A DNA stretch of 64,000 bases from a virus. Of this stretch, positions 11,830 through 58,473 are shown one piece after another. Where the stretch lies: IMG/VR virus record IMGVR_UViG_3300005836_000012; one strand, 5' to 3'. The notes beneath the pieces are model-generated. The model had not been told where the DNA came from. It saw nothing but the letters and a program-made list of their open reading frames with translations, and did not search any database. Both the position numbers and the translations under genes were made by a program. Position 1 is the first letter of the stretch. The number at the start of each line of letters is the position of its first letter.

Positions 11830-11832
11830 TGT

Positions 11833-27817: not shown

Positions 27818-28035
27818 GCGGAATCCTTTCTGCGATTCCAACGAGTAATAGCTAGCCTGATATAGGCCGCCGAGCCACGATCATCTGCCACGTCAGATCC
27901 ATCACGCACTATCGGCTGCGCTGGGCATCGATTGTTGACACACGCCACCCATCCCCAGGCGTTGCCTTCGCGCTCTGGGTCTTTGGGTCCAGTCCTTGGG
28001 GCTTTCCCACAAAACGGGCACGGCTTCGGGCTCAT
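27814..28035 (-). CDS. Lar-family restriction-alleviation-like protein
   Basis: MSPKPCPFCGK...CVNNRCPAQ...AAYIRLAITRWNRR matches the Lar layout (CPFCG, second Cys pair, AI..WNRR). Confidence 0.55.
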   Translation of the reverse strand: MSPKPCPFCGKAPRTGPKDPEREGNAWGWVACVNNRCPAQPIVRDGSDVADDRGSAAYIRLAITRWNRRKDSA

Positions 28036-28051
28036 GTGCGCTCCTGCGTGG

Positions 28052-38929: not shown

Positions 38930-39318
38930 AGATGCCGGCCATGCTGGTCCCCATCACCGCCAACCAGGCGCACGTCCTGCGCATGCTGGTCGAGACGATG
39001 ACGCCGCAGACCCACCCCGGGCTGGAGGTGGTCGACTTCGAGGATGCCTGGGCCATCCACGCAGCCCTAGCAACAGCCAAACCCATGACATCGGAGCACG
39101 AAATGACAGACCCCCGCGGGTACAAGCTGACCCCGAAACAGCCCGGCTTGCCGGTTCGGTACTTCGCCGCCACGCATCGATCGCAGCCCATGGCTCGCAT
39201 CGCTGAATCCCTCTACGAGTGCGAGGTGATGGGCCACGCGGACTACATGAAGGCCATCGCTGACGGCGTGAAGATCGAGGACGTGAAGACGAATGGACCC
39301 GGGCCAGTACAACCTTGA
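38926..39318 (+). CDS. Hypothetical protein
   Basis: 130 aa from ATG 38926 (ATGA overlap). Confidence 0.45.
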   Translation: MKMPAMLVPITANQAHVLRMLVETMTPQTHPGLEVVDFEDAWAIHAALATAKPMTSEHEMTDPRGYKLTPKQPGLPVRYFAATHRSQPMARIAESLYECEVMGHADYMKAIADGVKIEDVKTNGPGPVQP

Positions 39319-39874
39319 CATCAGGGCTGCGGCCCTCCTGTCGCTGATCGATGACGGCAGGCCAATGGTCGGCGTCGAGGTGGGCGTCTACCGAGGCGAC
39401 CTGTCAGCCGCGCTGCTACACGCGCGCCCGCAGTTGTGCATGCTCTTGGTCGATTCCTGGGGCGATCCAGATCGGGGCAGCCCCTACTATCAAACCGGCG
39501 ACCATCACGCATCGATGACCACAGCAGAGCAAGAGGCGGCGCGCCAGCTCTGCATGTCCAACATCGAACGATTCGGCTACCGCGCTGTGACCCGCCACAT
39601 GAAATCGGCAGAGGCAGCGCTTCGGCTATCTGATCGAAGCGTGGACTTCGTCTTCCTCGACGCGGATCATTCGTTCGAGGGCGTGACGGAAGACCTGAAC
39701 CTGTGGCTGCCGAAGATCAAAGACGGCGGCTGGATCGGAGGCCACGACTACGCGAACCCGGCACTGCCTGACACCAAAGTCAAGGAAGCGGTGGATGCGT
39801 TCTTCGGTGAACCGCCACGGCTGCTAGACGACATGGTGTGGGTGATGCCCGCCCCATTCTTTGCTGCAAAGTAG
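39293..39874 (+). CDS. Class I SAM-dependent methyltransferase (Methyltransf_24-like)
   Basis: VGVEVGVYRGDLS (motif I) and DFVFLDADHSFEGV...GGWIGGHDY. Confidence 0.6.
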   Translation: MDPGQYNLDIRAAALLSLIDDGRPMVGVEVGVYRGDLSAALLHARPQLCMLLVDSWGDPDRGSPYYQTGDHHASMTTAEQEAARQLCMSNIERFGYRAVTRHMKSAEAALRLSDRSVDFVFLDADHSFEGVTEDLNLWLPKIKDGGWIGGHDYANPALPDTKVKEAVDAFFGEPPRLLDDMVWVMPAPFFAAK

Positions 39875-44509: not shown

Positions 44510-44592
44510 AGCTGCGACACCGGCTGTGGATCATCCTGGCTTTGGTTGAGGGCGCCGCTGGCGTATTCTTCTTTCTGCGCGTGTTCCTGTGA
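44506..44592 (+). CDS. 28-aa single-helix peptide
   Basis: MKLRHRLWIILALVEGAAGVFFFLRVFL. ATGA and GTGA overlaps at both ends. Confidence 0.35.
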   Translation: MKLRHRLWIILALVEGAAGVFFFLRVFL

Positions 44593-45191
44593 GAGTCACG
44601 CTGCTGGGCGCCGGCGCACTCGGGCGCGAGTTCTACGAGTGGATTCGCTGCAATCCGGTGGTCGAGGTGCGGTTCGCCGATGACGTGCTGAAGGGCAGTC
44701 GCATCATCACGAGCGACGGTCCGACGACGGTGCTCGACCCTGCCGAGATTCCAGCGACCGAGCTGATGCTGGTCACGATCGCCGACCCGGTGAAGCGGGC
44801 GGCTGCGGTTGCTGCGCGTCCGACGCAGTCCTGGGCCACCTCGACCACATCCCCGAGCGTTCACGCATTTGACAGCCGCTGGGACGACGGCACGATGCAG
44901 GCCCCCTTCACTCTCGTGAGCGTCAACGCGAAGATCGGGAAGCACTGCATCATCGGCGCGTACAGCAGCGTCGGGCACGATGTCGTCATCGGCGACTTCT
45001 GCACGCTGTCCAGCCATGTCGATCTGTGCGGCCGCGTGAAGCTCGGCCAGCGCGTGTTCCTCGGGAGCGGCGCGCGCGTGCTGCCTGGGGTGGCGGTCGC
45101 TGATGACTGCTACATCGGCGCCGGCAGCGTGGTGGTGGTCGATGCCATGGTGCGCGGCACCTACTTCGGCGTGCCAGCGAGGCGCATGTGA
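44589..45191 (+). CDS. NeuD/PglD-family sugar N-acyltransferase (left-handed beta-helix)
   Basis: N-terminal Rossmann-like VTLLGAGALGRE. C-terminal hexapeptide repeats IGKHCIIGAYSSVGHDVVIGDFCTLSSHVDLCGRVKLGQRVFLGSGARVLPGVAV. Confidence 0.7.
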   Translation: MRVTLLGAGALGREFYEWIRCNPVVEVRFADDVLKGSRIITSDGPTTVLDPAEIPATELMLVTIADPVKRAAAVAARPTQSWATSTTSPSVHAFDSRWDDGTMQAPFTLVSVNAKIGKHCIIGAYSSVGHDVVIGDFCTLSSHVDLCGRVKLGQRVFLGSGARVLPGVAVADDCYIGAGSVVVVDAMVRGTYFGVPARRM

Positions 45192-45346
45192 ACCGCTGGC
45201 ATTTCTGGTTGTTCTGTAGCGGCAGCGGGTGTGCGGCTTACACCGTTGCCTGGCTGCTGAACCACATCGGCGCGCCGCCCAGCGTAGTGTTAGAGGGCGC
45301 CTGGGCTGTCGTCGTTCTTCTAGCGCTCTGGGAGAACAAGCAATGA
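45188..45346 (+). CDS. 52-aa two-helix membrane peptide (unlisted, weak)
   Basis: GTG 45188 overlaps the NeuD-like stop, and TGA 45344-45346 overlaps the Rieske ATG (ATGA). However GC3 is low. Confidence 0.3.
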   Translation: MNRWHFWLFCSGSGCAAYTVAWLLNHIGAPPSVVLEGAWAVVVLLALWENKQ

Positions 45347-46242
45347 TCCACCAAGGTCGACCTGCCATGATCCACCTGATCGGCAACGCCAGCGAGCTGG
45401 CCAACGAGGGCGACTACATCCGCCTGCCCATCGGAATCGATGACGTGGTGGTGATGCGCGAGGCCGGCGAACTGGTCGCCTTCGACAACGTTTGCACGCA
45501 CCGCGGCGCCCGCATCCATGAAGGGCTTGTCGGCAACCGCGAGCCGGTGTGCCGATACCACGGGCGCCGCGCGCGCGCCGACTGCGTGAACCGATACCAG
45601 ATCATCGTGGCCGGCTACTGGCTGTTCGTGAAGGTCGGCGGCGAGCCGGACGACGACACCGAGTTCATCGGCGACCCGACGCGAGCGATAGACGCGCTGC
45701 TGAACATCGGCCCGCTGGAGCGCGTGGCGATGCACACCCAGTTCTACGGCTCGCCGTGGACGATCGCTGTCGAGAACGCGCTCGACTGGACCCACGTCAG
45801 CACCGTTCACCCCGGAAGCCTCGGGCGCATGGGCATCAAGCCAATCGGGGGATGCCCAGGGCCGTCCGGCAGCAGCGTCGAGTTGTTCCGCGCCGATAAT
45901 CGCGCGCTGGCCAGACTGGCGCCAGACAACCCGCTGCCCTGTGACTACGTGCACCTCTACCTTGCCCCATACGCCTGCGTCAGCAGCACCCGAGGGCTCA
46001 CGGTGAGCGTGCAGCACTACCTACCAGCCGGCCCGCACCTGACGCGCTTCGTGACCCGCCTGTATGCCAAGCCGGGCACTCCGCGTGGCCTGGCAACCCA
46101 GGTGCACAAGCTGAACACCCAGGTATTCGACGAAGACGCGGCCGTGTGCGCGAGCGTGCACCCCGAGTTCATCGGCAAAGGCCCGCTGTCGGCTCAGGAG
46201 TGGCGCATCCAGGCGTTCCGCAACGTGTGGACGCCCCGGTGA
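45343..46242 (+). CDS. Rieske [2Fe-2S] non-haem-iron oxygenase (alpha-subunit-like)
   Basis: CTHRGARI...CRYHG Rieske ligands. ENALDWTHVSTVH gives the D-x2-H-x4-H mononuclear iron site. GGGAGA upstream of ATG 45343. Confidence 0.75.
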   Translation: MIHQGRPAMIHLIGNASELANEGDYIRLPIGIDDVVVMREAGELVAFDNVCTHRGARIHEGLVGNREPVCRYHGRRARADCVNRYQIIVAGYWLFVKVGGEPDDDTEFIGDPTRAIDALLNIGPLERVAMHTQFYGSPWTIAVENALDWTHVSTVHPGSLGRMGIKPIGGCPGPSGSSVELFRADNRALARLAPDNPLPCDYVHLYLAPYACVSSTRGLTVSVQHYLPAGPHLTRFVTRLYAKPGTPRGLATQVHKLNTQVFDEDAAVCASVHPEFIGKGPLSAQEWRIQAFRNVWTPR

Positions 46243-46571
46243 GGCTGATCGCCCCGCTCCACGACCTGGTGGTGACGGCCCCGCGCCGCGCCGACAAGCC
46301 GAACAGCCCGCACCGCGCCAGCACCGTGATGTCCGGCAGCGCCTGGGTGTGGCTGGAGGATCAAACGGTGGACGACCTGATCCGTGTGCACGGCCGAAAG
46401 TCGCTGTGCGACGTGACGCCAAACTACGTGTCGATGGTCTGGGGCAGCCCGCCGCCGCAGCGAATCTCCACGCTTCGGATCATCGACTGCCCGACCTGCC
46501 AAGCGGGCCAGGCCAAACGGATGACAACCTGCCCCATGTGCGGGGGCGCGACCAGGGTGCTGAACATATGA
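46239..46571 (+). CDS. Hypothetical protein with C-terminal CxxC-x12-CxxCGG zinc ribbon
   Basis: 110 aa, GTGA overlap. IIDCPTCQAGQAKRMTTCPMCGGATRV. Confidence 0.45.
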   Translation: MRLIAPLHDLVVTAPRRADKPNSPHRASTVMSGSAWVWLEDQTVDDLIRVHGRKSLCDVTPNYVSMVWGSPPPQRISTLRIIDCPTCQAGQAKRMTTCPMCGGATRVLNI

Positions 46572-47647
46572 CGATCCGCGTGCTGATCCCGAAGATGCCC
46601 AGCCCGGACGAGCTGCACCACTACTTATCGCGCATGCACGCCCGCCGCGTCTACGTGAACGGCGGGCCGCTCGTCAGCGAGTTGGAGGAGCGCATCCGAT
46701 CGATCATCGGCGTCGAGTGCCGCATGGTGTCAACCGGCACCTCGGCGATTCAGCTGGCGCTCCAGGCGCTGCACCTGCCGCCGAACAGCCGCGTCGCCGT
46801 CCCCGCGGCCACCTTCTCAGGCACCGGGCTGGCGATCAGGGCCGCAGGCCACCTTCCGGTGCTGTGCGACGTTGATGCCCAGAGCTGGCACCTGCAGCCC
46901 AGCGACGTACCTGCCGCCTGCGCGGCCGCGGTTCCTGTCGCGGCATTCGGCATGCCGGTGAACATCGGGCCGTGGGTGGCCTGGGCTGATGCGATGAACA
47001 AGCCGGTCGTGGTTGATGCCGCTGGAGCGCTCCTGGATCAACCTACCTGCGACAGCCCGCTGGTGCTGTTCGCCTTCAGCCTGCATGCCACCAAGTTCAT
47101 CGGAGCCGGCGAGGGGGGATGCGTCGCGGGGGCCTCGCGCTGGCTGCTGGATCGAGTCGCGGACCTGTCGCGCTTCGGCATGGTCGGCGGGACGAATGCC
47201 AAGATGTCGGAGTACCACGCGGCCGTAGCCCACGCCAGCCTGGACAGCGCCGACACGCGCTGCGAGCACATGCGGATGACGCGGCATCGGTATCACAGCC
47301 GGCTGCTCAAGCGGATTCCAGGCATCCAGTTCCAGCGCCCACCGATCGAACTGCTGTGGCGAGGGGCGGCGTCCCTGATGCCGATCCTGCTGCCAGAGGA
47401 CCGCCCGGCCATGCCCACGATGCACGCGCTGGAGCGCGTCGGGGTCGAGACGCGGCAGTGGTACAGGCCGTTCCTGAATGAGCGGCCAGACATGCCAGTG
47501 AGCCCGAGCGCGCGCCGTTTCGGCGACGACATGCCGGTCACCATGACGCTGATCGAGCGCCTGATCGGCCTGCCGTTCCACTACTTCCTGACGCTCGACG
47601 ACATCGACGCCGTCTGTCATCACCTGGAAACGATATGCGCATCCTGA
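46568..47647 (+). CDS. DegT/DnrJ/EryC1/StrS-family PLP sugar aminotransferase
   Basis: 359 aa from ATG 46568 (ATGA overlap). FAFSLHATKFIGAGEGG carries the PLP-lysine context. Fold-type I layout. Confidence 0.75.
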   Translation: MTIRVLIPKMPSPDELHHYLSRMHARRVYVNGGPLVSELEERIRSIIGVECRMVSTGTSAIQLALQALHLPPNSRVAVPAATFSGTGLAIRAAGHLPVLCDVDAQSWHLQPSDVPAACAAAVPVAAFGMPVNIGPWVAWADAMNKPVVVDAAGALLDQPTCDSPLVLFAFSLHATKFIGAGEGGCVAGASRWLLDRVADLSRFGMVGGTNAKMSEYHAAVAHASLDSADTRCEHMRMTRHRYHSRLLKRIPGIQFQRPPIELLWRGAASLMPILLPEDRPAMPTMHALERVGVETRQWYRPFLNERPDMPVSPSARRFGDDMPVTMTLIERLIGLPFHYFLTLDDIDAVCHHLETICAS

Positions 47648-48624
47648 TCACGGGTGGCTGTGGCTTCCTAGGGGGCCATCTGATCGAGGCCGCGATCGCC
47701 GCGGGGCACTACGTCGAGACGATCGACAGCATCACCTACGCCGGCAACATGCAGAACCTGCCATGGAGGTTTCAGGGCTACCGCAACGCCGACGTGTGCG
47801 ATCGCACGCTGATCGATGCCACGCTCCAGCGGGTTCGGCCGGACTGGGTGATCCACGCCGCGGCGGAGACGCACGTCGGGAGAGCGGTCAATGATGCGGA
47901 GGTCTTCCTGCAGACCAACGTCATCGGCACGCACGTGATGCTGGAGGCCTCGCTGTCGTACTGGCGGGAGATTGAGCACAGCCCCACGTTCCGCTTCCTG
48001 TACGTCAGCACGGACGAGGTGCACGGGAGCCTGGGGTTCAACGACCCGCGCTGGACCGAGGATAGTCCGATCGCCCCGAACAACCAGTACAGCGCGAGCA
48101 AGGCGGCCGGGGATCATCTGTGCCGCGCCTACTGGGTGACGCAGCGGCTTCCAGTGATCGTGACGCACTGCGGCAACAACTACGGCACCCGCCAGCACCC
48201 GGAGAAGCTGATCCCGACGCTGATCGGTCAGTGCCTCGCAGGTCGGCCGATGACGCTGCACGGGGATGGACAGCACGTCCGAGACTGGATCGCCGTCGAG
48301 GACCACTGCTCTGGCCTGCTGGCCGCCTGCGAGCGCGGGAATCCTGGCGAAACCTACGCGTTCAGCGCCGGCCAGGAACTGCGCAACGTGGAGGTGGCGA
48401 AGACCATCGGCGGCGTGTTCGGGGCGGCGACGATCGAGCTGATCGCGGAGCGCGCGGGGAACGATCGCCGCTACGCACTGGACTGCAGCGCGACGCGGGC
48501 AGCGCTCGGCTGGCATCCCCGGCGCAACCTGCTGCTGGAAGTCAATCGGCTGGTGCAATGGCACAGGGCGGTGGGCGAGAAGTTCGCCGCCGACTACGGG
48601 GTAGGTGCGCGGAGGTTTGGATGA
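47635..48624 (+). CDS. rfbB: dTDP-glucose 4,6-dehydratase-like NDP-sugar dehydratase
   Basis: ILITGGCGFLGGH, YVSTDEVHGS, YSASKAAGDHL (YxxxK), NNYGTRQHPEKLIP, GDGQHVRDWIAVEDHC. Confidence 0.8.
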   Translation: MRILITGGCGFLGGHLIEAAIAAGHYVETIDSITYAGNMQNLPWRFQGYRNADVCDRTLIDATLQRVRPDWVIHAAAETHVGRAVNDAEVFLQTNVIGTHVMLEASLSYWREIEHSPTFRFLYVSTDEVHGSLGFNDPRWTEDSPIAPNNQYSASKAAGDHLCRAYWVTQRLPVIVTHCGNNYGTRQHPEKLIPTLIGQCLAGRPMTLHGDGQHVRDWIAVEDHCSGLLAACERGNPGETYAFSAGQELRNVEVAKTIGGVFGAATIELIAERAGNDRRYALDCSATRAALGWHPRRNLLLEVNRLVQWHRAVGEKFAADYGVGARRFG

Positions 48625-50576
48625 CCGAGACGGTGGTGCCAGCGAAGGAGGCCGCGAACCGGCCGACCTTGCCGCAGATTCAAATCCAGAACATCGACCT
48701 GCCGGAAATCGAGCGAGCCGTCTACGGAAGACAGCACGAGGAGGCCTGCAAGCTGTTCGTCGCGGCGCTGCAGCGGCTGAAGATGGGGGCCGGCTTCACC
48801 ACGCTGCCGATGACAGTCGAGGCGCTGAAGATAGGCTACACCCGCATGGCGTCGGCCATGGTTGCCATGCTGGCGGACCCGAACATGGGCTTGGGCTCTG
48901 AGGGCTTCGACATCTTCGGAGCCGAGCACGCGATCACGGACACCATGTTCCGGGCCAGCGCCTACGGCACCAGCGACTTCCTGCTCGCGATCCTTGGGAA
49001 CCGGCTCGACGCGCAGCAGAGCGGCAACAACCAGCCGGGATTCAGGGCCGCAGCTCAACAGGCGGTGAAGTTCATGGTCACGCACAGCCTGGCCAGTGCG
49101 CTGGACCTGGATCACGAACAGATTTTCAAGCAAGACCCCAAGTCGTTCTTCGGCCTGTGGTGCGGCATGCTCGCCCCGCTGCTGGTGCTGACCGAGGCAG
49201 CGACGGCGCGGCGCGAAAAGTTGCTCGGGCTGGGCTACGTCTTCGAAGGCGTCGCCGTCCGCCAGCTGATGCTGCCCAGCGTCAGCGACGCGTTCATGTA
49301 CGCCAGCTACGCCACCAGACCCGACAAGCACAAGGCGAAGGCCGCGATCATCGCGGCGATGCGCCGCGGGATGCTTGGCGCCGGCGTCGAGGAACCGAAG
49401 CCGGAAGTCATCGCCGCGCGCCGCCTGGTGCGCCACCACCGTCCGACGATCCTGGTGTGCGTCGAGTGGTTCGGCGGGCAGCATGCCATGTATCGCTGCT
49501 ACTGCCTGATCATCCGCCAACTCCGCAAGCGCTACCGCCTCGTGGCGATGTCCAGGGCGATCGACATCGACGAAATCGGCAAGGCGGAGTTCGACGAGTG
49601 GCACGAGGTGCCGGCGGAAAACCTGGCCCTCGGCGACCTGGTCAAGCGCGTGGCCGACATCGCCCCGGACATGATCTATCACCCGTCGCTGGGGATGGCG
49701 ATGTGGTGGGTGGCGCTTTCCTCGCTTCGGCTGGCCCCGATCCAGTTCGCCACGCTCGGGCACCCGGCCTCGTCGATGTCTCCGACCATGGACTACATCC
49801 TGTGCGACGAGGGAGCGTTCGGCGATCCAACCCTCGCGGTCGAGCGGATCGTCACCTATCCGAACGGCAGCGCCCGCTACGTCCTGCGGACTGACGAGGA
49901 CGTGCCGCCGCCTTTGCCAGTCAGCGAGGTGTCAGCCGACCCGATCAACATCGCGATCCCGGCCATGATGTGCAAGGTCACCGTTCCATTCCTCAAGGCT
50001 TGCAAGCTGGTCAGCGAGCAGGCTGGGCGCTCCGTGCGTTGGCACTTCTTCATCAACATGCTCGGCCTGAACCTGATCGCTGCCGCGGCGGAATTGAGGG
50101 CGTGGCTGCCGGACTGCCTCACCTACGAGCGGAACACGTACAAAGGCTACATGGACGCCCTGCGGCATTGCCACATCGTCGCGAGCACGTTTCCATTCGG
50201 GGGGACCAACTCCATCATCGACAGCATGATGGTCGGCGTCCCGCCGGTGTGCATCGAGGGCCAGGAACCGCACGAGCGCTTCGACGCAGCCATCATCCGC
50301 AGGGCGCAGCTTCCTGACTGGCTGATCGCCAACGATGTCGAGGGCTGGATCGCGGCCATGGTCCGGCTGATCAAGGAGGACGGCACGCGCAACGCGATCC
50401 GCGATCACCTCCTGACCTTCGACCTGAAGGGCGAGTTCTATGGTCCATCCGAGCACGGCGACGCCTTCGCGCGCGCGGTGGACCTGATCTTCGACAACCA
50501 CGAGGCGATCCAGGCGTTGCCGGATCGCGCGCCGATCGATAGCACCATGTGGAGCGCGCCATGTTCGTCAAGCTGA
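48621..50576 (+). CDS. GT41-family (OGT / HMW1C-like) glycosyltransferase
   Basis: 651 aa, GGAGG RBS. Helical N-domain. APDMIYHPSLGM..LRLAPIQFATLGHPASSMSPTMDYILCDE and CHIVASTFPFGGTNSIIDSMMVGVPPVCIEG match GT41 catalytic blocks. Confidence 0.65.
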   Translation: MTETVVPAKEAANRPTLPQIQIQNIDLPEIERAVYGRQHEEACKLFVAALQRLKMGAGFTTLPMTVEALKIGYTRMASAMVAMLADPNMGLGSEGFDIFGAEHAITDTMFRASAYGTSDFLLAILGNRLDAQQSGNNQPGFRAAAQQAVKFMVTHSLASALDLDHEQIFKQDPKSFFGLWCGMLAPLLVLTEAATARREKLLGLGYVFEGVAVRQLMLPSVSDAFMYASYATRPDKHKAKAAIIAAMRRGMLGAGVEEPKPEVIAARRLVRHHRPTILVCVEWFGGQHAMYRCYCLIIRQLRKRYRLVAMSRAIDIDEIGKAEFDEWHEVPAENLALGDLVKRVADIAPDMIYHPSLGMAMWWVALSSLRLAPIQFATLGHPASSMSPTMDYILCDEGAFGDPTLAVERIVTYPNGSARYVLRTDEDVPPPLPVSEVSADPINIAIPAMMCKVTVPFLKACKLVSEQAGRSVRWHFFINMLGLNLIAAAAELRAWLPDCLTYERNTYKGYMDALRHCHIVASTFPFGGTNSIIDSMMVGVPPVCIEGQEPHERFDAAIIRRAQLPDWLIANDVEGWIAAMVRLIKEDGTRNAIRDHLLTFDLKGEFYGPSEHGDAFARAVDLIFDNHEAIQALPDRAPIDSTMWSAPCSSS

Positions 50577-50815
50577 CTTCTGTGCCAGTCAAGAACCTTG
50601 ACGATGGCGCCTTGCATGCGATGTACGTCGAGGCTGCCGATGTGGCGGCGATCAGTCGCGGCATCCTAAACACTGTCCCGGCAGAGGGTTGCACGATGGT
50701 GCTGATCATGCGGGACGGCGGCGTGGCAACGCTTGCCGTCAGCGAATCGCCAGGCGTTGTGGCCAAGATGGTGGAGGACGCGCTGGCGCGCGCCGTCCAG
50801 ATGCCGCGGCCATGA
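50561..50815 (+). CDS. Hypothetical small protein
   Basis: 84 aa (ATG 50561, alternative GTG 50549). Confidence 0.45.
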   Translation: MFVKLTSVPVKNLDDGALHAMYVEAADVAAISRGILNTVPAEGCTMVLIMRDGGVATLAVSESPGVVAKMVEDALARAVQMPRP

Positions 50816-51303
50816 TCTACGAACTGGAGCTATACCGCCGGACGCGCACCGCCGCGCCCGACCTGCCGACCGACATCCCGGCATCGACGCTGCTGCGCAA
50901 GGAAATGCGCGAGGCCAGCGATGGGCTGATGTTCTTCGCCCTGCACCGCCAGTCGGTTGTCGCCGTTGCAACGCACGCTGCGAACGTCATCCTGCAGATG
51001 GCCCGCACGCTTGACGCCACGGGAGAAACACCAGGGGTTCCTGATCTGGTCAACGGAGCCTGCACGCTGATCCAGGAGGTGCGCGACCGCATGGACCGCG
51101 CCCTGCTGCTGAACGACGGCGAGCAGCTGCGCTGGTCGACCTGCATGCTGGAAATCCAGGTGCGCGGCATCCTGGCCATCCTGGTCGGCACCGTGCCCTA
51201 CACCACCCTGATGGAGACGATCGCCGAGCGCGGCGACCTTCACGCCATCCTGACCGCCTGCGGCGCGCTGCCGCCAACCCAAACCACCGAGACACCCCAA
51301 TGA
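50812..51303 (+). CDS. Hypothetical helical protein
   Basis: 163 aa, ATGA overlap. Confidence 0.5.
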   Translation: MIYELELYRRTRTAAPDLPTDIPASTLLRKEMREASDGLMFFALHRQSVVAVATHAANVILQMARTLDATGETPGVPDLVNGACTLIQEVRDRMDRALLLNDGEQLRWSTCMLEIQVRGILAILVGTVPYTTLMETIAERGDLHAILTACGALPPTQTTETPQ

Positions 51304-51518
51304 TGGACCGCGAGAAGTTCCTGCACACCCTGTCGGCGATCGTGGAGCACGCGCCGCTGACAGCCGAAACCCAACTGGCATCCACCGGCCTATGGGATTC
51401 CATGGCCTGGGTGCAGGTGATCGGAATGCTCGATGACTGCGGCATCGAGGCGAACGGCGAGCAGGTCAGCAAATGCGAGACGGCCGCCGACGTGCTGAAG
51501 CTGGCGAGGCTGGGATGA
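51300..51518 (+). CDS. Acyl/peptidyl carrier protein (phosphopantetheine-binding)
   Basis: 72 aa. LASTGLWDSMAWVQVIGMLDD has the carrier-protein DS(L/M) Ser context in helix II. Confidence 0.6.
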   Translation: MMDREKFLHTLSAIVEHAPLTAETQLASTGLWDSMAWVQVIGMLDDCGIEANGEQVSKCETAADVLKLARLG

Positions 51519-51856
51519 AGCGCCTGCGAGCCGTCGCGCTGTGGCTGTTCTGGCGCTTCGGGTTTGGCCTGCTGCTCTACATGGCCTTGGCTCACGGTAG
51601 CGATGGCGCGGCGAACTTCGCCAAGTTCTACGTCTGGATGGTCGCCGTCCTTCTGTTGCTGGTCGCCATCGGCATGCTTGCTGACATCGATTTGTCGAAC
51701 AAGCCGTCCGTCATACCGCTGTGGCTGAATGTCGCAGTCGACACGGTTGCCTTCTGCGTCATGCTGTGGTTCGGCTGGATCGCCACGGCTGCGGCGTACC
51801 TGTTTTCAATAGTGATCGCTGCGGCCGCGCAGCGCCGCATGGGAGCGAAAGAATGA
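51515..51856 (+). CDS. Integral membrane protein (about 4 TM)
   Basis: 113 aa from ATG 51515 (ATGA overlap). Long hydrophobic segments. Confidence 0.55.
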   Translation: MKRLRAVALWLFWRFGFGLLLYMALAHGSDGAANFAKFYVWMVAVLLLLVAIGMLADIDLSNKPSVIPLWLNVAVDTVAFCVMLWFGWIATAAAYLFSIVIAAAAQRRMGAKE

Positions 51857-52824
51857 ACCGCCGCGAACGTCTGAACGCCACCATCCGCGGCGTGGTCGCG
51901 GTGATCCCTCCGAACGGCGTGAACAACGAGGAACTGGACGCGCTGCACGGCAACGACTTCGCCACGAAGTCAGCCGGGATCACCGGCGTGCTGCGGCGCC
52001 ACAGAACCGCTCCCGAGGCCTCGATGCCGACCGAGTTCGCCTGCGCGGCCGCGGCGCGCCGGCTGATGGTGAACCTCGGATGGGACGCGAGCAGCATCAA
52101 CGCGCTGGTGTTCGTCACGCAGACCCCGGGGGTGGAAATGCCCAGCGGCGCACACGCGATCCACGAGGCGCTCGGGCTTCCCGCCAACTGCGTCCCGGTG
52201 CAGGTGAACTGGGCCTGCGCAGGTTTCGTCTATGGCCTGTGGCTCGGCGCCCTGCTGGGCGGCGGGGACCGCACGCAGCGCATCCTGGTGCTGGCCGGCG
52301 ACACGATCACGCGGCGCTGCGACCCGAACGACAGGGCTACCTCGGCTGTCTTCGGGGACGCCGCGAGCGCCACGGCGATCGAGGTCGGATCGAATCAGGG
52401 CGCCATGCGCTTCGTCCTGGGCACCGACCCGGAGGGATGGCACAAGCTGTCCATGGCTGACGGCAAGCCGATGACGATGGACGGGACGGCCGTCTTCAAC
52501 TTCACGCTGCGCCGCGTTCCTGCCCTGCTCTCGGACGTGCGCGAGGCCGGCGTGCCGGACCTGTGGCTGTTCCACCAGGCCAACGCCTTCATGCTCGACC
52601 ACATCGTGCGCAAGGCCGGGATTCACCCCTCCGTGGCCCCCACGAACCTACAGGTGCGCGGCAACACCAGCAGCGCATCCATCCCCCTCCTGATGTGCGA
52701 CATGGGCCGTCAGGCGCTGCGCGGCAAGCGCGTGGCCATGGTCGGCTTCGGCGCCGGCTGGACCTGGGGGGCTGTCAACGTCGAATTGCACGGCCTGGAC
52801 TGTGCGGAGGTGATCGAGCTATGA
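51853..52824 (+). CDS. KAS III (FabH)-family 3-oxoacyl-ACP synthase / acyltransferase
   Basis: Cys-His-Asn triad contexts NWACAGFVYG, LFHQANAFM, RGNTSSASIP. 323 aa, ATGA overlap. Confidence 0.75.
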   Translation: MNRRERLNATIRGVVAVIPPNGVNNEELDALHGNDFATKSAGITGVLRRHRTAPEASMPTEFACAAAARRLMVNLGWDASSINALVFVTQTPGVEMPSGAHAIHEALGLPANCVPVQVNWACAGFVYGLWLGALLGGGDRTQRILVLAGDTITRRCDPNDRATSAVFGDAASATAIEVGSNQGAMRFVLGTDPEGWHKLSMADGKPMTMDGTAVFNFTLRRVPALLSDVREAGVPDLWLFHQANAFMLDHIVRKAGIHPSVAPTNLQVRGNTSSASIPLLMCDMGRQALRGKRVAMVGFGAGWTWGAVNVELHGLDCAEVIEL

Positions 52825-53525
52825 CGGCCAGGTATCTGGTGACCGGCGCCTACGGTGGGCTGGGCGCGGAGGTCTGCAAGCGGCTGCGCGCGCAGGGCGC
52901 GGAGGTTCACGGCATGGTGCGCGCTGTCGGCGGGCCTGATGTCGATCTGTACGGCTACCACCAGATGGACTTCAGCCACGCCACGCCATCCCAAGTGGCG
53001 ACCGCCGTTCTGAAGATCGCATCCGCCTTCGACGGTGTGGTTCACACTGCTGGCTCCGAGGTGGTGCACCCGCTGGTCGGGCATCAAGACGCCCAATACA
53101 ACCGCGCCATGGCCGCAGCGCACAGCGCCTTCGGCATCCTCATGGCTGCAGCTGAAGGCGCCGTGATGAAGGGCGGCAGCATCGTCATGATGTCCAGCGT
53201 GGCCGCGCATCGCGGGGTGGCCGGCATGGTGGCCTACAGCGCCGGCAAGGCGGCGATCGAGGCCATGGTGCGGAGCGGCGCGCTGGAGCTGAAGCGCCGC
53301 AGCATCCGGGTCAACTGCGTGGCCGCTGGCGCCTTCCGCAGTCCGATGCACGACCGCATCACCCGCGGCATGAACGAGGCCAGCCAGGACGCCTACGCCC
53401 AGAAGCACCCGATGGGCATCGGCGCCCTGTCGCACGTGGCCGACGCCGTGATGAACCTGCTTCAAGGCGCGAGCTGGCAGACCGGCAGCACGGTGGTGGT
53501 CGATGGCGGATTCTTGGCGGGATGA
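52821..53525 (+). CDS. Short-chain dehydrogenase/reductase (FabG-like)
   Basis: VTGAYGGLGAEV (TGxxxGxG), SSVAA...YSAGKAA (S...YxxxK). 234 aa. Confidence 0.75.
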   Translation: MTARYLVTGAYGGLGAEVCKRLRAQGAEVHGMVRAVGGPDVDLYGYHQMDFSHATPSQVATAVLKIASAFDGVVHTAGSEVVHPLVGHQDAQYNRAMAAAHSAFGILMAAAEGAVMKGGSIVMMSSVAAHRGVAGMVAYSAGKAAIEAMVRSGALELKRRSIRVNCVAAGAFRSPMHDRITRGMNEASQDAYAQKHPMGIGALSHVADAVMNLLQGASWQTGSTVVVDGGFLAG

Positions 53526-54780: not shown

Positions 54781-55029
54781 ATGCGTATTTACCCGATGGA
54801 CGATTGCCACGACTGGGATGTCTGGCACTGCCGCCGATGCGTCGAGCCGCGCGACATCCTGTGGATTGACAGCGAGTCGTGCCGCTGGGCGCAGTTCCAA
54901 CACGCCGAGTACGACGGGGTCGAGCTGGTGGTGCACCAGGCGGACCGCATCCACATCTTCGACCAGCGTCGGCTGGTGCTGATCGACCCGGTGGCCACAG
55001 CCGAACCATCCCGTGTCAGTCGTCGCTGA
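54781..55029 (+). CDS. Hypothetical small protein between TerS and TerL
   Basis: 82 aa from ATG 54781. Cys/His/Trp-rich N-terminus. Confidence 0.45.
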   Translation: MRIYPMDDCHDWDVWHCRRCVEPRDILWIDSESCRWAQFQHAEYDGVELVVHQADRIHIFDQRRLVLIDPVATAEPSRVSRR

Positions 55030-56518
55030 CCAGCGCGTCCCGTCCGAGCTGGCAAGCCGGGGGGAGTGGGGGCGCCGGTCGTTCCGCTACTTCTTCCGCC
55101 ACTTCGCGTGGCCCGTGCTGTACCCAGGGGTGGAGTTCGTCGACGGCTGGCACATCGACGCGGTGTGCGAGCACCTGGAGGCACTGAAGCGGGGGCAGAT
55201 AAGGCGGCTGGCCATCAACATGCCGGGCCGGCACCTCAAGTCATCCCTTGTCAGCCAGGCCTTCAACGCCTGGGACTGGATCGCCGACCCGCAGCTGACG
55301 CACCTGACGGCCAGCTACGTCACGGCGCTGGCGGTGCGCGACGCGGTGGGAACGCGGCGCATCATCCAGTCGAAGCTGTACCAGGACTGCTACGGCGGCC
55401 GATTCGCGCTCCAGCCCGACCAGAACGAGAAGACGATGTACGCCAACACCCGCGGCGGCTACCGGCGCCCGGTCGGGGTCGACGCCGGCATCATGGGCTA
55501 CGGGGGCAACCGGCGGACGGTCGACGACCCGGTGGACCCAGCTGCTGTATCCAACGCCGGCGCGATCGAGCGCGGTGTGGAGTGGTGGAAGGGCACGTTC
55601 AGCACGCGGGGGAACGATCCGCTGAACGACACGATCATCCTGGCCCAGCAGCGCCTGAGCGACGGCGACACCACCGGCTACGTGATGAAGAACGAGCGCG
55701 GCTGGGAGTACCTGGTGATCCCGGCGCGCTACGAGCACGAGCACCGCCGCCCGCCGACCATCATCGGATGGGTGGACCCGCGCAAGAAGGAACGCGAGGT
55801 GATACAGCCATCCCGGCTGCCCGACAGCGCGGTCGCGGAACTGGAAGCCAACCTTGGCGAGTACCACCGGCTCGCCCAGCTCCAGCAGCGCCCGACGAAC
55901 CGCGGCGGGATCATCTTCCCGCGCAGCCACTACCGCTTCTGGACGAAGGCGACGCTGCCCAAGATCGACTACGTGGCGCTGTCGGTCGACTGCACCTTCA
56001 AGGACGGCCCCACCAACGACCATGTGGCGATCCAGGCGTGGGGCTTCGCGCTCTCGCACAGCCAGAACATCCTGCTGCACCGCGTCAAGGAGCGCATGTC
56101 CTTCGCGGCGACCTGCGATTCCGTCAAGTCGGTCTATGCACTGTTCGAGCAGCTGTGCATAGCGGTGCTGATCGAGGACAAGGCCAACGGCAGCGCGGTG
56201 GTCGAAACCCTCGCGGGGACGGTTCCTGGTGTGGTTGCGGTCAACCCGGAGGGCGGCAAGGCGGCCCGGGCCTTCGCCATGCAGGCCGACCACGAGGCGC
56301 ACTGCATCGTCCTCCCGGCCCCGGAGGAAGACCCGAAGATCGAGGTCTTCCTGGTCGCCAGTTCGGCGTTCACCGGCCTGGAAGGCGGCGACGATGACGA
56401 GGTGGACGCCATGACGCAGTTCGTGAACTGGAAGCGCGTGCGGTTCAAGACCACCGGCCTGCAGCAGCTGATGAAGGCGCAGTACGAGGCGGCGCAGGCA
56501 GCGAAGGCGGCCGCCTGA
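55013..56518 (+). CDS. terL: Terminase large subunit
   Basis: RRLAINMPGRHLKSSL (PxRxGKS-type Walker A variant). C-terminal nuclease block ALSVDCTFKDGPTNDHVAIQAWGF. 501 aa. Confidence 0.8.
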   Translation: MSVVADQRVPSELASRGEWGRRSFRYFFRHFAWPVLYPGVEFVDGWHIDAVCEHLEALKRGQIRRLAINMPGRHLKSSLVSQAFNAWDWIADPQLTHLTASYVTALAVRDAVGTRRIIQSKLYQDCYGGRFALQPDQNEKTMYANTRGGYRRPVGVDAGIMGYGGNRRTVDDPVDPAAVSNAGAIERGVEWWKGTFSTRGNDPLNDTIILAQQRLSDGDTTGYVMKNERGWEYLVIPARYEHEHRRPPTIIGWVDPRKKEREVIQPSRLPDSAVAELEANLGEYHRLAQLQQRPTNRGGIIFPRSHYRFWTKATLPKIDYVALSVDCTFKDGPTNDHVAIQAWGFALSHSQNILLHRVKERMSFAATCDSVKSVYALFEQLCIAVLIEDKANGSAVVETLAGTVPGVVAVNPEGGKAARAFAMQADHEAHCIVLPAPEEDPKIEVFLVASSAFTGLEGGDDDEVDAMTQFVNWKRVRFKTTGLQQLMKAQYEAAQAAKAAA

Positions 56519-56733: not shown

Positions 56734-58473
56734 ATGGCCGCGCGCGAGGATATGGGTCAACAGGTCGCGCCAGGGGTCATCCAGCGGGTGAGCCAGGGGC
56801 TGTCGTACATCGTCAGCGGCGTCACCCCTGCCAGCTGGTTCGGCCCGAGCCAGCCGCTGCGCCCGCTCGTACAGGACCAGACCGAAGGCCGGCAGTTCGA
56901 CTACCCGGTCGGCTACAACCTGCGGATCACGCCGCGCGAGGGGGAGATTCCATTCTCCATGCTGCGCAGCTTCGCCGATGGATACGACCTGCTCCGTCTT
57001 GCCATCGAGACGCGCAAGGACCAGATCGAGGCCTACGACTGGGAAATCGTCCCCGCTGACCCGAAGGCCCCGAAAGGGGCGATGAAGGACGAAATCAAGG
57101 CGGTCACCGACTTCCTGCAGAAGCCGGACAAGGAACTGCTATGGCCGCAATGGCTGCGCCGGATGATGGAGGAGCTGTTCGTCATCGACGCGATGGCGTT
57201 CTACCCGCGCGCCGACATGGGGGGCCACCTCTACGCGCTGGAGGTGCTGGACGGCGCATCGCTCAAGCGCGTGCTGGACCTGGAAGGCCGCACTCCCATG
57301 CCGCCATCGCCGGCCTATCAGCAAATCCTGCACGGCATCCCGGCCAACGACCTGACCACGGACGACATCACCTACATCATGCGCAACCCGCGCGTGAATC
57401 GGGTCTATGGACTGTCGCCCGTAGAGCAAATTTTGATGACCGTGAACATCGCGATCCGCCGCCAGTTGACCCAGTTGTCGAGTTACACCGAGGGCACGAT
57501 GCCCGAGGCGCTGGCCCAGGTTCCAGAGTCGTGGACCAGCAAGATGATCGCGGATTTCCAGACGTGGTTCGACGGGTTGCTGGCCGGCAACATCGCGCTG
57601 CGCCGGCGAATCACGTTCATCCCGAAGCTCGACAACATCTACATGCCGCGCGCCGAGGTGATGAAGGACGAATACGACGACTGGCTGGCCCGCATCGTCT
57701 GCTTCGCCTTCAGCATCAGCCCGACAGCCCTGATTAAGAACCCGAACCGCGCGACGAGTCAGTCGATGTCCGACACGGCGAAGGAGGAGGGCCTGCAGCC
57801 GCTGCTGAAGTTCATCGGCGCCGTGATGACGCAGCTGATCACGCAGTACATGGTGCCGGGCCTGCGCTTCCAATTCGCGACGGTCAACCAGACGAATCCG
57901 CTGGAACAAGCCCAAATCGACGACCTCTACATCAAGGACAAGGTGCTGACGCCGGACGAGGTTCGGGAGGGCCTGGGGCGCGAGCCACTGACCCCGGAAC
58001 AGCGCGCAGAGGCGTTTCCAGCTCCCCCGCCGATGCTGGCGCCGGGACAGGAGAAACCAGAGGACTCGGCGATCAACCTGCCGAACCCGGACAAGCCATC
58101 AGCGACGGCCGTGCCGCGGACGAACACGGCGACGGACATCGAAAAGGCGCTGGGCGGCCTGCAGTTGCATGTCCACGCCTCCCCGGTGACCGTGGACGCC
58201 CCGGTCCAGATGGGCGACACGCACGTGCACGTTCCGAAGCAGACGGCCCCGGCGGTCACGGTCGGGGCTCCGATCGTCAAGGTCTACGGCGACACGAAGG
58301 TCCAAGCGCCACCGATGCCGATGAAGAAGGTGGTCCGAGCGCGCCGCGATCCGCACAGCGGCGAGTTGTTCGGCGAGGTGACGAGCGAGGTGGTCGACAG
58401 CGCCGCGGTCACGCAGTCGCTGGCCAAGGCGCTGCAGCAACACAGGGGGGCCGACGATGCCGAAACTGACTAA
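56734..58473 (+). CDS. Portal protein
   Basis: 579 aa after TerL. Conserved-looking core (FSMLRSFADGYDLLRLAIETRKDQI, VYGLSPVEQILMTVNIAIRRQ). Pro/Ala-rich C-terminal tail. Confidence 0.75.
   Translation: MAAREDMGQQVAPGVIQRVSQGLSYIVSGVTPASWFGPSQPLRPLVQDQTEGRQFDYPVGYNLRITPREGEIPFSMLRSFADGYDLLRLAIETRKDQIEAYDWEIVPADPKAPKGAMKDEIKAVTDFLQKPDKELLWPQWLRRMMEELFVIDAMAFYPRADMGGHLYALEVLDGASLKRVLDLEGRTPMPPSPAYQQILHGIPANDLTTDDITYIMRNPRVNRVYGLSPVEQILMTVNIAIRRQLTQLSSYTEGTMPEALAQVPESWTSKMIADFQTWFDGLLAGNIALRRRITFIPKLDNIYMPRAEVMKDEYDDWLARIVCFAFSISPTALIKNPNRATSQSMSDTAKEEGLQPLLKFIGAVMTQLITQYMVPGLRFQFATVNQTNPLEQAQIDDLYIKDKVLTPDEVREGLGREPLTPEQRAEAFPAPPPMLAPGQEKPEDSAINLPNPDKPSATAVPRTNTATDIEKALGGLQLHVHASPVTVDAPVQMGDTHVHVPKQTAPAVTVGAPIVKVYGDTKVQAPPMPMKKVVRARRDPHSGELFGEVTSEVVDSAAVTQSLAKALQQHRGADDAETD

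Follow-up and report, generated by a model that had tools for sequence, protein, structure and literature searches.

A phage-encoded HMW1C/NGT-type glycosyltransferase within a predicted amino-sugar operon

Soluble N-glycosyltransferases (NGTs) are, to our knowledge, the only enzymes that form asparagine N-glycosidic bonds with a sugar nucleotide as the direct donor, which makes them key tools of cytoplasmic glycoengineering. The characterized NGTs that we know of all come from bacteria, take UDP-hexoses as donors, and have adhesins as substrates. Viruses also glycosylate their virions, including O-glycosylation of actinobacteriophage capsid and tail proteins and N-glycans on chlorovirus capsids; as far as we know, these systems rely on enzymes of GT-A/GT2 or other types and not on GT41 proteins related to HMW1C. 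The functional residues of NGTs are defined (PMC10507012, PMC10466321), and the known enzymes use UDP-hexoses and are sensitive to the C4 configuration, with UDP-Gal being ∼40-fold poorer than UDP-Glc (PMC10507012). In ApNGT, residues 215-DVYM-218 read the +2 Ser/Thr and Y222/H371 activate the Asn (PMC10466321). A different sugar is made by the vioA, vioB, vioS, vioR, and acp genes of Pseudomonas syringae, whose product is dTDP-N-(3-hydroxybutanoyl)viosamine (PMC3927599).

The window, the whole 64,000-nucleotide stretch of DNA analyzed, represents a ∼64-kb siphophage with an RcGTA-like tail, which probably infects a betaproteobacterium (Burkholderiales). The phage comes from metagenomes only. 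It codes for a full-length NGT relative inside an amino-sugar operon, a combination that is not described for any virus, and the operon context is the more novel aspect of the finding. The glycosyltransferase (GT) gene (48621 to 50576, forward strand) is an intact open reading frame coding for 651 amino acids, with an ATG start codon that overlaps the dehydratase stop codon upstream (ATGA), a GGAGG motif 5 nt 5′ of the start, a TGA stop codon, and a GC3 of 0.80, a level expected of coding sequence.

The GT has an all-alpha domain (residues ∼1 to 270) and a GT-B catalytic domain (∼275 to 610), and there is strong support from sequence and modeling for its assignment as a genuine HMW1C/NGT-type GT41 enzyme. 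A phmmer search of PDB matches it to AaNGT (1.8e-62) and ApNGT (4.9e-56; residues 27 to 613), the NCBIfam NGTferase family matches at an E value of 3e-74, and Pfam HMW1C_N matches above its gathering score (28.9 versus 27 bits). The AF2 model (pLDDT, 92.6) aligns by Foldseek to the NGT structures 8p0o, 3q3e, and 8p0q with TM scores of 0.84 to 0.89, and NGT structures fill all of its 10 best PDB matches (0.81 to 0.89), in contrast to OGT and SPINDLY at ∼0.5 (0.45 to 0.55). The sequence-only reading had proposed a phage-encoded HMW1C/GT41 protein closer to HMW1C-type enzymes than to OGTs, and had asked whether non-GT41 folds would be the better structural matches; the full-length match and the fold bear out the proposal, and the three catalytic blocks that it quoted are all present in the translation, on the NGT catalytic core. 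Its all-helical N-terminal domain stands as described, although in the AF2 model this extends over ∼270 residues and not ∼330. An O-GlcNAc transferase-type GT41 identity (OGT, SPINDLY, or XcOGT) was considered and rejected on the low TM scores, the lack of any Pfam TPR match, and a PF13844 (Glyco_transf_41) score of 15 bits, below the gathering score of 25. By its score against the NCBIfam equivalog NF049992 (UDP-glucose:protein N-beta-glucosyltransferase; 250.6 bits versus a cutoff of 1000), the GT is a homolog of that family and not an equivalog. No metal-binding motif is present, and we predict that the product is soluble, metal independent, and inverting, as part of an overall explanation that we judge to be, on balance, the probable one.

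The catalytic residues are well conserved. The LGHP, MMCK, and FPFGGTNS blocks place G380-H381-P382, K452, and T529-N530, respectively, and H288, R292, G380-H381-P382, K452, Y510, N530, and D534 do not vary among 65 family members; when AaNGT is included (66 aligned sequences), H288, R292, K452, N530, D534, Y510, and G380-H381 are invariant in all 66. The AaNGT catalytic and pyrophosphate-binding residues H276, R280, K440, N520, D524, Y500, and G369-H370 are thus all retained. At the acceptor site, 223-DAFM-226 aligns with ApNGT 215-DVYM-218, and Y230 and H381 align with Y222/H371; alignment A2 shows no variation at M226, Y230, or H381 and at least 90% conservation at D223. Conservation of this NGT-specific D-x-x-M/Tyr/His motif favors N- over O-glycosylation. 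Two AaNGT peptide-backbone contacts are not kept, in a helical region where the alignment is less certain: R177 is replaced by L187 (Leu in 49/66 aligned sequences), and H214 is opposite a gap. Clade-wide substitutions at donor and acceptor contacts include S277A, T437M, Q468M, H494R, and G521S. H494 is the uracil stacker of NGTs and forms the uracil recognition pair with S495; the phage GT has R504/N505 at these positions, together with A289 for S277, M449 for T437, and S531 for G521, and the uracil and sugar/phosphate contacts of the UDP-Glc type are thus not kept, with changes common to the clade.

The GT gene lies within a translationally coupled operon of ∼9 kb (44589 to 53525, all genes on the forward strand) with start/stop overlaps from 45367 to 53525; its ∼14% share of the genome implies strong selection. 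The first gene (44589 to 45191) codes for a VioB/PglD-like hexapeptide-repeat sugar N-acyltransferase of the NeuD/PglB/VioB family (Pfam Hexapep, 4e-17; NCBIfam TIGR03570, 9.5e-40, under the family cutoff). Next are a Rieske [2Fe-2S] nonheme-iron oxygenase (45367 to 46242; Pfam Rieske, 8e-12, with Ring_hydroxyl_A/VanA_C), which probably hydroxylates the sugar or its acyl group as a tailoring step, and a small Cys4 zinc-ribbon open reading frame (46329 to 46571; start uncertain, 46227 or 46329) with weak zinc-ribbon Pfam matches only and a homolog, 54% identical, in the same position in locus L001. The PLP aminotransferase (46568 to 47647; Pfam DegT_DnrJ_EryC1, 2e-41) is DegT/DesI/VioA-like; in NCBIfam it comes closest to DesI, a dTDP-4-dehydro-6-deoxyglucose aminotransferase, and if the overall explanation is right, as it probably is, it would aminate C4 of a 4-keto-6-deoxy sugar. 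It is followed by an RmlB-like dTDP-glucose 4,6-dehydratase (47635 to 48624; NCBIfam TIGR01181, 7e-94 and 314 bits versus a cutoff of 365; Pfam GDP_Man_Dehyd/Epimerase) and by the GT.

Downstream of the GT are a high-GC3 open reading frame of 84 to 88 amino acids without a family match in profile searches (50561 to 50815), and a ∼160-residue all-helical protein that is conserved after the GT in phages (50812 to 51303). The latter has no match in Pfam, PDB, or PHROG, a poor AF2 model (pLDDT, 57), and 79 representatives among 1.84 billion proteins; its orthologs (32 to 35% identical) lie directly 3′ of the GT in L001, L003, L005, and L007, and no tblastn match (E ≤ 1e-5) is seen in the seven bacterial loci compared. 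A 72-residue probable acyl carrier protein (ACP) with a GLWDSM motif (51300 to 51518) has a subthreshold PP-binding match (E = 0.032; 15 to 65 of 67 profile positions) and a weak PDB match to the ACP 1x3o, and resembles acp of the P. syringae viosamine island in size and position. A small, 113-residue, membrane-like protein with many hydrophobic stretches and no significant family match (51515 to 51856) precedes a FabH/VioS-like KAS III beta-ketoacyl-ACP synthase (51853 to 52824; Pfam ACP_syn_III and ACP_syn_III_C; NCBIfam PRK09352, 8e-52) and a VioR-like short-chain dehydrogenase/reductase (SDR) resembling 3-oxoacyl-ACP reductases (52821 to 53525; Pfam adh_short_C2, 4e-30; NCBIfam 3oxo_ACP_reduc, 1e-24). 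The operon therefore contains genes of all five viosamine types, vioA, vioB, vioS, vioR, and acp, by family assignment, with the ACP being subthreshold.

At least 22 IMG/VR viral contigs carry the GT-amino-sugar module, which also recurs in ∼60 metagenomic protein clusters, with the GT accompanied by DegT, acyltransferase, and dehydratase genes in L001, L003, L005, L007, and 22 IMG/VR contigs. DegT adjoins the GT at 17/26 viral and 50/75 bacterial loci; VioB-like homologs are in the cluster at 12/26 viral loci, the ACP candidate is kept at 7/26, and the Rieske oxygenase is at 7/26 and in a Roseateles island, with a PhyH dioxygenase taking its place in L005. The module was not found in GenBank phages (50,697 records), PHROGs, or BFVD (best structural match of the GT, TM 0.38), and we found no published description of a phage NGT with an amino-sugar module. 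Related GT+DegT cassettes are on Burkholderiales chromosomes. In a neighbor-joining tree, the viral GTs form their own clade, and the Pasteurellaceae enzymes fall outside the entire environmental clade as a long-branch outgroup.

Because the operon corresponds to the viosamine-island gene set, the donor is likely to be a dTDP-N-acyl-4-amino-4,6-dideoxyhexose and not UDP-glucose. The sequence-only reading had overlooked the amino-sugar genes and implied UDP- or dTDP-hexose chemistry; the operon changes the likely donor. In the pathway that we propose, the phage would take dTDP-glucose from the host, the RmlB-like enzyme would dehydrate it to dTDP-4-keto-6-deoxyglucose, the DesI/VioA-like aminotransferase would aminate C4, and the VioB-like transferase would N-acylate the amine with a short 3-hydroxyacyl chain that the KAS III and the ketoreductase assemble on the probable ACP; the product could then be hydroxylated by the Rieske oxygenase. 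The GT would transfer the N-acyl-4-amino-4,6-dideoxyhexose from its nucleotide to the Asn side-chain amide of N-x-S/T proteins in the infected cytoplasm. We regard this explanation, that the operon makes an acylated amino sugar that the GT places on Asn of N-x-S/T, as somewhat better than an even prospect. Since the known NGTs use UDP-hexoses and are C4 sensitive, a donor with a bulky C4 N-acyl group would be unprecedented, and the GT might instead use host UDP-glucose as do ApNGT and HMW1C, with the amino-sugar genes serving elsewhere, for example with host glycosyltransferases. K452, N530, D534, and Y510 (the catalytic core and ribose/phosphate contacts) are kept and UDP-hexose is the donor of all known family members, but we consider this improbable given the tight coupling of the GT and dehydratase genes through the ATGA overlap, GT-DegT co-occurrence at both viral and bacterial loci, and the clade-specific donor-contact changes, including Arg for the uracil-stacking His. 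There is also no second GT family match in the cluster for the sugar to serve, and the ∼160-, 84-, and 113-residue proteins have no family.

The acceptor is less readily assigned from the sequon content. The sequence-only reading had pointed to the capsid protein (8631 to 10157), with 10 N-x-S/T sites, and a repeat protein at 63186 that starts with four N-A-[TS]; both descriptions are accurate, with 7 of the 10 capsid sites lying within residues 184 to 307. Shuffling predicts 6.3 ± 2.2 sequons for the capsid against the 10 observed (P = 0.09), and S/T-x-N, the reverse motif, is likewise found 10 times; the repeat protein has 5 compared with 1.7 expected (P = 0.01, uncorrected for 86 genes). 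The 32 structural proteins pooled have 75 forward and 90 reverse sequons, with 63 ± 7 expected. Virion sequon counts do not rise above what composition predicts, and the reverse motif equals or exceeds them in frequency, in accord with the earlier caveat that no excess over expectation could be claimed. These two proteins are accordingly not supported as acceptors, and the repeat protein is absent from at least one GT-carrying phage. We note that capsid N269-L-T and N456-V-T are in 7/8 capsids of GT-carrying phages and in 1/8 and 0/8 capsids, respectively, of phages without the GT, a contrast confounded with phylogeny. We infer an N-linkage, and tentatively place virion proteins first among acceptors, as a real possibility that falls short of probable, and host envelope or secreted proteins second, as a fainter one.

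It is plausible, though we think rather unlikely, that the operon is a host-conversion module in which the GT modifies host proteins such as flagellin, pilins, secreted adhesins, or a phage receptor and not virion proteins, changing the cell surface for superinfection exclusion or lysogenic conversion. The characterized NGTs all modify secreted adhesins of their own cell, the same sugar type is present on Pseudomonas flagellin, and a paper exists on the flagellin glycan of Acidovorax (Burkholderiales). The L001 cassette is in a classical moron position, between tail-fiber genes and the lysis/integrase region, and cassette position varies between phage genomes, the pattern of a mobile accessory element; related cassettes are chromosomal in Burkholderiales, and the Roseateles island adjoins a gene for a secreted ∼470-residue protein with a forward-biased excess of sequons (91 forward and 56 reverse, with 73 expected). 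However, the window phage has no recognizable integrase, no host target can be named, and the operon runs in the direction of the terminase and head genes and ends just 5′ of them, an arrangement suggestive of late expression.

Decoration of a nonprotein acceptor, namely phage DNA (hypermodified bases), lipid, or polysaccharide, is very improbable. Some phages have GT-B enzymes that attach exotic sugars to DNA, and DNA glycosyltransferases are linked to thymidylate-synthase or C5-MT/5mYOX genes (bioRxiv 10.1101/2023.12.21.572611), and the window does code for a Methyltransf_24 and a DUF4942 protein, but no thymidylate-synthase or C5-MT/5mYOX genes were detected in the window parts scanned (Pfam, PHROGs, and NCBIfam). 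Moreover, in its fold, all-alpha peptide-binding domain, and sequon-reading motif the GT is of the protein NGT type, and the same cassette is among housekeeping genes of bacterial chromosomes. The parts of the window scanned (all but ∼9 small open reading frames) have no other GT family match and no flippase, polyprenyl-phosphate transferase, thymidylate-synthase-like, or TET-like gene, and the lack of flippase, lipid-carrier, second-GT, and TET-like genes fits a cytoplasmic protein acceptor.

If transfer of a phage-made amino sugar to Asn is correct, bacterial viruses would join the organisms that perform N-linked protein glycosylation with their own machinery, and NGT donor chemistry would widen to acylated amino-deoxy sugars, offering a one-enzyme route to N-linked amino sugars for which engineers currently have only ApNGT mutants. 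It would also reveal a large environmental GT41+DegT clade (50/75 bacterial loci and at least 22 viral contigs). The phage could gain a shielded or more stable virion, a masked receptor, or a converted host surface. A bolder version, which we consider speculative, is that a one-step NGT places phage-made N-(3-hydroxyacyl)-4-amino-4,6-dideoxyhexose on Asn residues of its own virion (e.g., capsid N269 and N456), as the first viral cytoplasmic N-glycosylation system and within a large amino-sugar-dependent NGT clade of bacteria and phages, with the Pasteurellaceae UDP-glucose enzymes as its atypical outgroup. Because one operon codes for all of the components, recombinant proteins would allow a direct test of the hypothesis.

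The closest enzymes are Haemophilus influenzae HMW1C, ApNGT (A. pleuropneumoniae), and AaNGT (A. aphrophilus) (3q3e, 8p0o, and 8j30), which have the same all-alpha plus GT-B architecture, catalytic Lys, N/D/Y nucleotide contacts, G-H-P loop, D-x-x-M motif, and Tyr/His pair; the phage GT is just ∼23 to 25% identical to them, with changed donor-pocket and uracil contacts and without R177 and H214. HMW1C and EtpC, although not all NGTs, are linked to an HMW1A/B-type adhesin and two-partner secretion, whereas the phage GT is linked to an amino-sugar pathway, and haemagglutinin/TPS-type and autotransporter domains were absent from the window proteins scanned, which cover most of the genome. The operon shares with the P. 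syringae and P. aeruginosa viosamine island the C4 aminotransferase, VioB-type N-acyltransferase, KAS III, 3-oxoacyl-ACP reductase, and ∼70-residue ACP, and dTDP-N-(3-hydroxyacyl)-4-amino-4,6-dideoxyglucose is therefore predicted. That island (vioA, vioB, vioS, vioR, acp, vioM, and vioT; PMC3927599) uses the 1173-residue VioT to extend an O-linked rhamnan; in contrast, the phage operon has an HMW1C-like NGT and not a VioT/OrfN type, no methyltransferase (VioM), an additional Rieske oxygenase and its own RmlB-like dehydratase, and is in a phage and not a flagellar locus. As in the actinobacteriophages and chloroviruses, the virus brings its own GT and possibly sugar-nucleotide enzymes, which would act in the cytoplasm. 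Also close are the bacterial cassettes: in the Burkholderiales metagenome-assembled genomes (L008, L021, L009, and L033) the GT is 41 to 42% identical, and in the Roseateles island (L055), which also has KAS III, SDR, and Rieske oxygenase genes, 27 to 29%, both with the same clade-specific residues. These cassettes have an adjacent DegT, with or without the acyltransferase, as in the phage, but are chromosomal, among housekeeping or type II secretion genes.

The HMW1C-like glycosyltransferase (GT) gene at 48621..50576 on the plus strand is an intact ORF of 651 codons, with an ATG start, a TGA stop at 50574-50576, a GGAGG sequence 5 nt before the start codon, and an ATGA overlap with the TGA of the upstream gene; its third-position GC is 0.80 in a genome of 66% GC. 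A sequence-only reading had assigned the product to the HMW1C type of GT41 enzymes, and the three sequence blocks that it quoted are all present in the translation. When searched against all PDB chains with phmmer, the protein matches AaNGT (8p0o/8p0q) with an E value of 1.8e-62, spanning GT residues 27-613, and ApNGT/HMW1C-like chains (3q3e and 8j30) at ~1e-55, with TPR-type OGTs reaching merely 1e-6 to 1e-2. HMW1C_N scores above its Pfam gathering score, Glyco_transf_41 is sub-threshold, and the sole NCBIfam match is NGTferase (3e-74), which at 250 bits is far under the 1000-bit equivalog cut-off. Non-GT41 folds among the best structural matches had been set in advance as grounds for abandoning the assignment; the 10 best PDB matches to an AlphaFold2 model built from an alignment of 43 homologs (pLDDT 92.6, pTM 0.91) are all NGT structures, with TM scores of 0.81 to 0.89 over ~625 to 640 aligned columns, and OGT, SPINDLY, and XcOGT rank next at ~0.5. 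We assign the enzyme with high confidence to the protein glycosyltransferases of the NGT superfamily.

Functional residues of AaNGT (PMC10507012) and ApNGT (PMC10466321) were mapped onto the phage enzyme and 65 relatives, and the catalytic and nucleotide-binding residues H288, R292, G380-H381-P382, K452, Y510, N530, and D534 are invariant throughout. The ApNGT segment 215-DVYM-218 reads the Ser/Thr at the +2 position of the sequon (N-x-S/T) (PMC10466321), and its counterpart, 223-DAFM-226, is retained in the phage GT, as is the proposed acceptor-Asn-activating Tyr/His pair (Y230/H381, both invariant). Because both elements are retained, the sequence favors N-glycosylation at Asn-x-Ser/Thr over OGT-like O-glycosylation. 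Relative to AaNGT there are also clade-wide contact changes (S277A, T437M, Q468M, G521S, and H494R, the last replacing the uracil-stacking His with Arg throughout the clade), and in the GT alignment the AaNGT peptide-site residue R177 is Leu and H214 is deleted. The conserved core combined with the clade-wide contact changes thus describes an NGT-superfamily enzyme whose pocket is, judging from these residues, remodeled relative to known NGTs.

The GT gene is one of 12 ORFs transcribed in one direction from 44589 to 53525 on the plus strand, most of whose starts and stops overlap, forming an apparent operon, a setting that the sequence-only reading had overlooked; a promoter and terminator scan of window positions 42 to 56 kb gave no informative signal inside it. 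These code for a NeuD/PglB/VioB-family N-acyltransferase (44589-45191), a Rieske oxygenase (45367-46242), a small Cys4 zinc-ribbon protein (46329-46571; 54% identity to its homolog in the related viral locus L001), a DegT aminotransferase (46568-47647) whose best match is a DesI-type dTDP-4-keto-6-deoxyglucose aminotransferase, an RmlB-type dTDP-glucose 4,6-dehydratase (47635-48624; 314 bits, against a cut-off of 365), the GT, a product without an assigned family (50561-50815), a conserved ~160-aa helical protein (50812-51303), a probable 72-aa acyl carrier protein (ACP; 51300-51518) with a sub-threshold PP-binding match and a GLWDSM motif, a small hydrophobic protein (51515-51856), a KAS III (51853-52824), and a 3-oxoacyl-ACP-reductase-like SDR (52821-53525). 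We speculate that the zinc-ribbon protein, encoded between the Rieske oxygenase and aminotransferase genes, is a rubredoxin-like electron carrier for the oxygenase. The GT is the sole protein of the cluster with a glycosyltransferase family match that could use the predicted sugar, and no flippase, polyprenyl-phosphate transferase, or second GT was found in the scanned parts of the window. DNA was considered as the acceptor, as phage DNA glycosyltransferases are accompanied by ThyS or C5-MT/TET genes (bioRxiv 10.1101/2023.12.21.572611), and was rejected because the scanned parts of the window contain no homologs of cytosine-C5 methyltransferases, TET/JBP, or thymidylate synthase.

The replicon carrying this operon is a phage, coding for a large terminase (55013-56518), a portal (56734-58473), a prohead protease (6918-8588), and a major capsid protein (8631-10157; phrog_13692). 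It also has genes for a Mu-F-like head protein, a tape-measure protein, an adaptor, tail-fiber proteins (18456-21194 and 21726-22565), and a tail module; in related phages, orthologs of the tail module bear DUF2460, phiJL001-Gp84, and Rcc01698_C domains. Its nearest cultured relatives are the Brevundimonas phages Strzyga and Polewnik, with capsid identities of 50 to 52%, and neither a tRNA nor an integrase was found in the window. The window comprises 64,000 of the 64,114 bp of the metagenomic contig, and an ORF open at the 3' end (63186-) and one open from base 2 have frames that fit one gene across a circular junction. The resulting ~541-aa protein (63186-63998 plus 2-694) appears to span circularly permuted contig ends, the frames agreeing once the 114 nt outside the window are added, and consists of ~19-aa [V/L]xLG...A.V repeats and, after them, a poly-Pro stretch.

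Several other features of these genomes deserve mention. Between the portal and head genes, a 478-aa protein (59348-60784) without a PHROG match pairs an Apiosidase-like glycoside-hydrolase domain (4e-37) with a collagen-binding-like C-terminal domain, and may be a virion-associated glycan depolymerase. A 503-aa polyvalent protein (2113-3624) joins an InPase domain (9e-39) to a Zeta-toxin-like P-loop domain (1e-10), and the PHROGs relatives of its N-terminal part are DarB-like, minor-head, and endolysin-annotated giant proteins; in the related loci L085 and L086 the InPase part is a separate, shorter gene. A block at 25464-28052 has a GC content of 0.586 versus ~0.65. Its short genes on the minus strand include those for an XRE-type HTH regulator (27340-27621) and, at 27814-28035, a CxxC zinc-ribbon protein; no integrase lies inside it, and GC3-based gene calling called no genes there. 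A DUF4942 protein (5e-49) is encoded at 3872-4768 on the minus strand and a Methyltransf_24 protein at 39293-39874 on the plus strand. L087, a relative with the GT gene, has GIY-YIG and HNH homing-endonuclease genes at 11534-12508 and 14217-14723, directly downstream of the capsid gene and among those for the head-tail connector; these insertions have no counterparts in the window.

The GT recurs among uncultivated viruses: a search with the protein returned 70 clusters, many of them 40 to 63% identical and on contigs of 59 to 68 kb, and a profile-based scan of IMG/VR placed it on 22 viral contigs. All four contexts retrieved (L001/2, L003/4, L005, and L007) have the GT inside the same cassette, adjoining RcGTA-like tail genes. 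In L003 the cassette is reduced to a minimum of the acyltransferase, DegT, the dehydratase, the GT, and the 160-aa ORF, L005 has a PhyH dioxygenase in place of the Rieske enzyme, and L007 is without its own dehydratase. Of the 26 viral loci analyzed, 17 have DegT, 12 the acyltransferase, 10 the dehydratase, and 9 KAS III/SDR. A tblastn search of 50,697 GenBank phage records gave no match to the GT, and when the region was compared with GenBank phages at the nucleotide and protein levels, one weak DegT match was the only result. No PHROGs family matches the GT, no structural equivalent is present in BFVD (best TM 0.38, to a generic GT-B), and full-text literature searches returned no paper tying HMW1C, NGT, or GT41 to phages.

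The ~160-aa all-helical ORF lies directly 3' of the GT in every related phage examined (L001:12192-12692, L003:12013-12498, and L005:4831-5316), and none of the bacterial cassettes compared has a detectable counterpart. An exhaustive HMM search of 1.84 billion proteins found 79 representatives, profile searches of Pfam, PHROGs, and the PDB assigned no known family, and the AlphaFold2 model (pLDDT 57) is too poor for a fold search. This protein may be a phage-specific accessory factor.

The sequence-only reading had raised the capsid and the repeat protein as acceptors on account of their sequons, an idea that shuffling statistics do not bear out. We applied these to every window protein, to the flanking proteins of L001, L003, and L005, and to structural versus non-structural pools, and none has a sequon-specific excess, the reverse motif (S/T-x-N) being equal or higher. 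For the capsid, 6.3 ± 2.2 sequons are expected and 10 are observed (P = 0.09), alongside 10 reverse motifs; for the repeat protein, 1.7 are expected and 5 observed (P = 0.01, uncorrected). The whole window proteome has 99 versus 86.5 expected with 110 reverse, and the pooled structural proteins have 75 forward and 90 reverse with 63 expected. A homolog of the repeat protein is encoded in L085 but not in the GT-carrying phage L087, and we therefore reject this protein as a general acceptor. An initial comparison of capsids from phages with and without the GT was set aside, as one contig supposed to be without it (65,089 bp, L086) carries the gene (L090). A second comparison used IMG/VR contigs scanned for both genes together with two complete GenBank Brevundimonas phages; capsids accompanied by the GT have 8 to 10 sequons (mean, 8.75; ~6 expected) and those without it have 3 to 6 (mean, 4.5; 4.4 expected), with N269-L-T and N456-V-T present in seven of eight of the former and in one and none, respectively, of eight of the latter. 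Forward and reverse motifs are, however, equally raised in the GT-associated capsids (63 versus 63), and the same general N/S/T richness is seen in the adaptor and tail-tube proteins. These capsids form one phylogenetic clade, so that GT presence coincides with kinship, and the contrast at N269 and N456, being confounded by capsid clade, is at most suggestive and no evidence of modification, which makes these two residues no more than candidate sites. The GT may modify virion proteins, in keeping with its late-operon position upstream of the terminase, or it may modify host surface proteins, for which there is precedent in the NGT family and with which the cassette's moron-like mobility and its location adjoining the integrase region in L001 are consistent.

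Bacterial relatives of the GT were found at 78 loci (one genome per species), and DegT is beside the GT in 50 of 75. The closest, at 41 to 42% identity, are in chromosomal DegT-GT(-acyltransferase) cassettes of two or three genes in Burkholderiales MAGs (L008, L009, L021, and L033), with the GT at ~10001-11900 amid tol-pal, queC, spoT, rpoZ, and gmk, and these GTs share all of the clade-specific active-site substitutions with the viral GT. The phage host is probably a betaproteobacterium, given that the GT has its nearest genomic relatives in MAGs of Betaproteobacteria/Burkholderiales. A larger chromosomal island in Roseateles asaccharophilus BE316 (L055:426-19989) codes for an HMW1C-like GT, DegT, two KAS III proteins, an SDR, a Rieske oxygenase, and an FAD-binding protein; it adjoins type II secretion genes (secretin/T2SS-M/pseudopilin) and is flanked by a divergently transcribed gene for a secreted ~470-aa protein, 10 orthologs of which have 91 N-x-S/T motifs versus 73 expected and 56 reverse motifs. 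These counts hint that Roseateles-type islands (L055, and also L037, L039, L040, L047, L053, L057, L060, L062, and L063) modify the neighboring secreted protein, which is a candidate natural bacterial acceptor.

In a neighbor-joining tree, the viral GTs group in a clade of their own next to the Burkholderiales cassette, with AaNGT as a long-branch outgroup, and the characterized UDP-glucose NGTs thus look like atypical members of a much larger amino-sugar-linked family. A parallel for the donor is the viosamine island of Pseudomonas syringae, the source of dTDP-N-(3-hydroxybutanoyl)-viosamine in flagellin glycosylation, in which vioA, vioB, vioS, vioR, and acp correspond to the phage aminotransferase, N-acyltransferase, KAS III, ketoreductase, and ACP (PMC3927599). 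From this match in gene content we infer that the phage product would be a dTDP-N-acyl-4-amino-4,6-dideoxyhexose, possibly hydroxylated further. We lean somewhat toward the view that the GT N-glycosylates sequons using this acylated amino-sugar, which would join a known enzyme chemistry to a new predicted class of donor, in a viral carrier.
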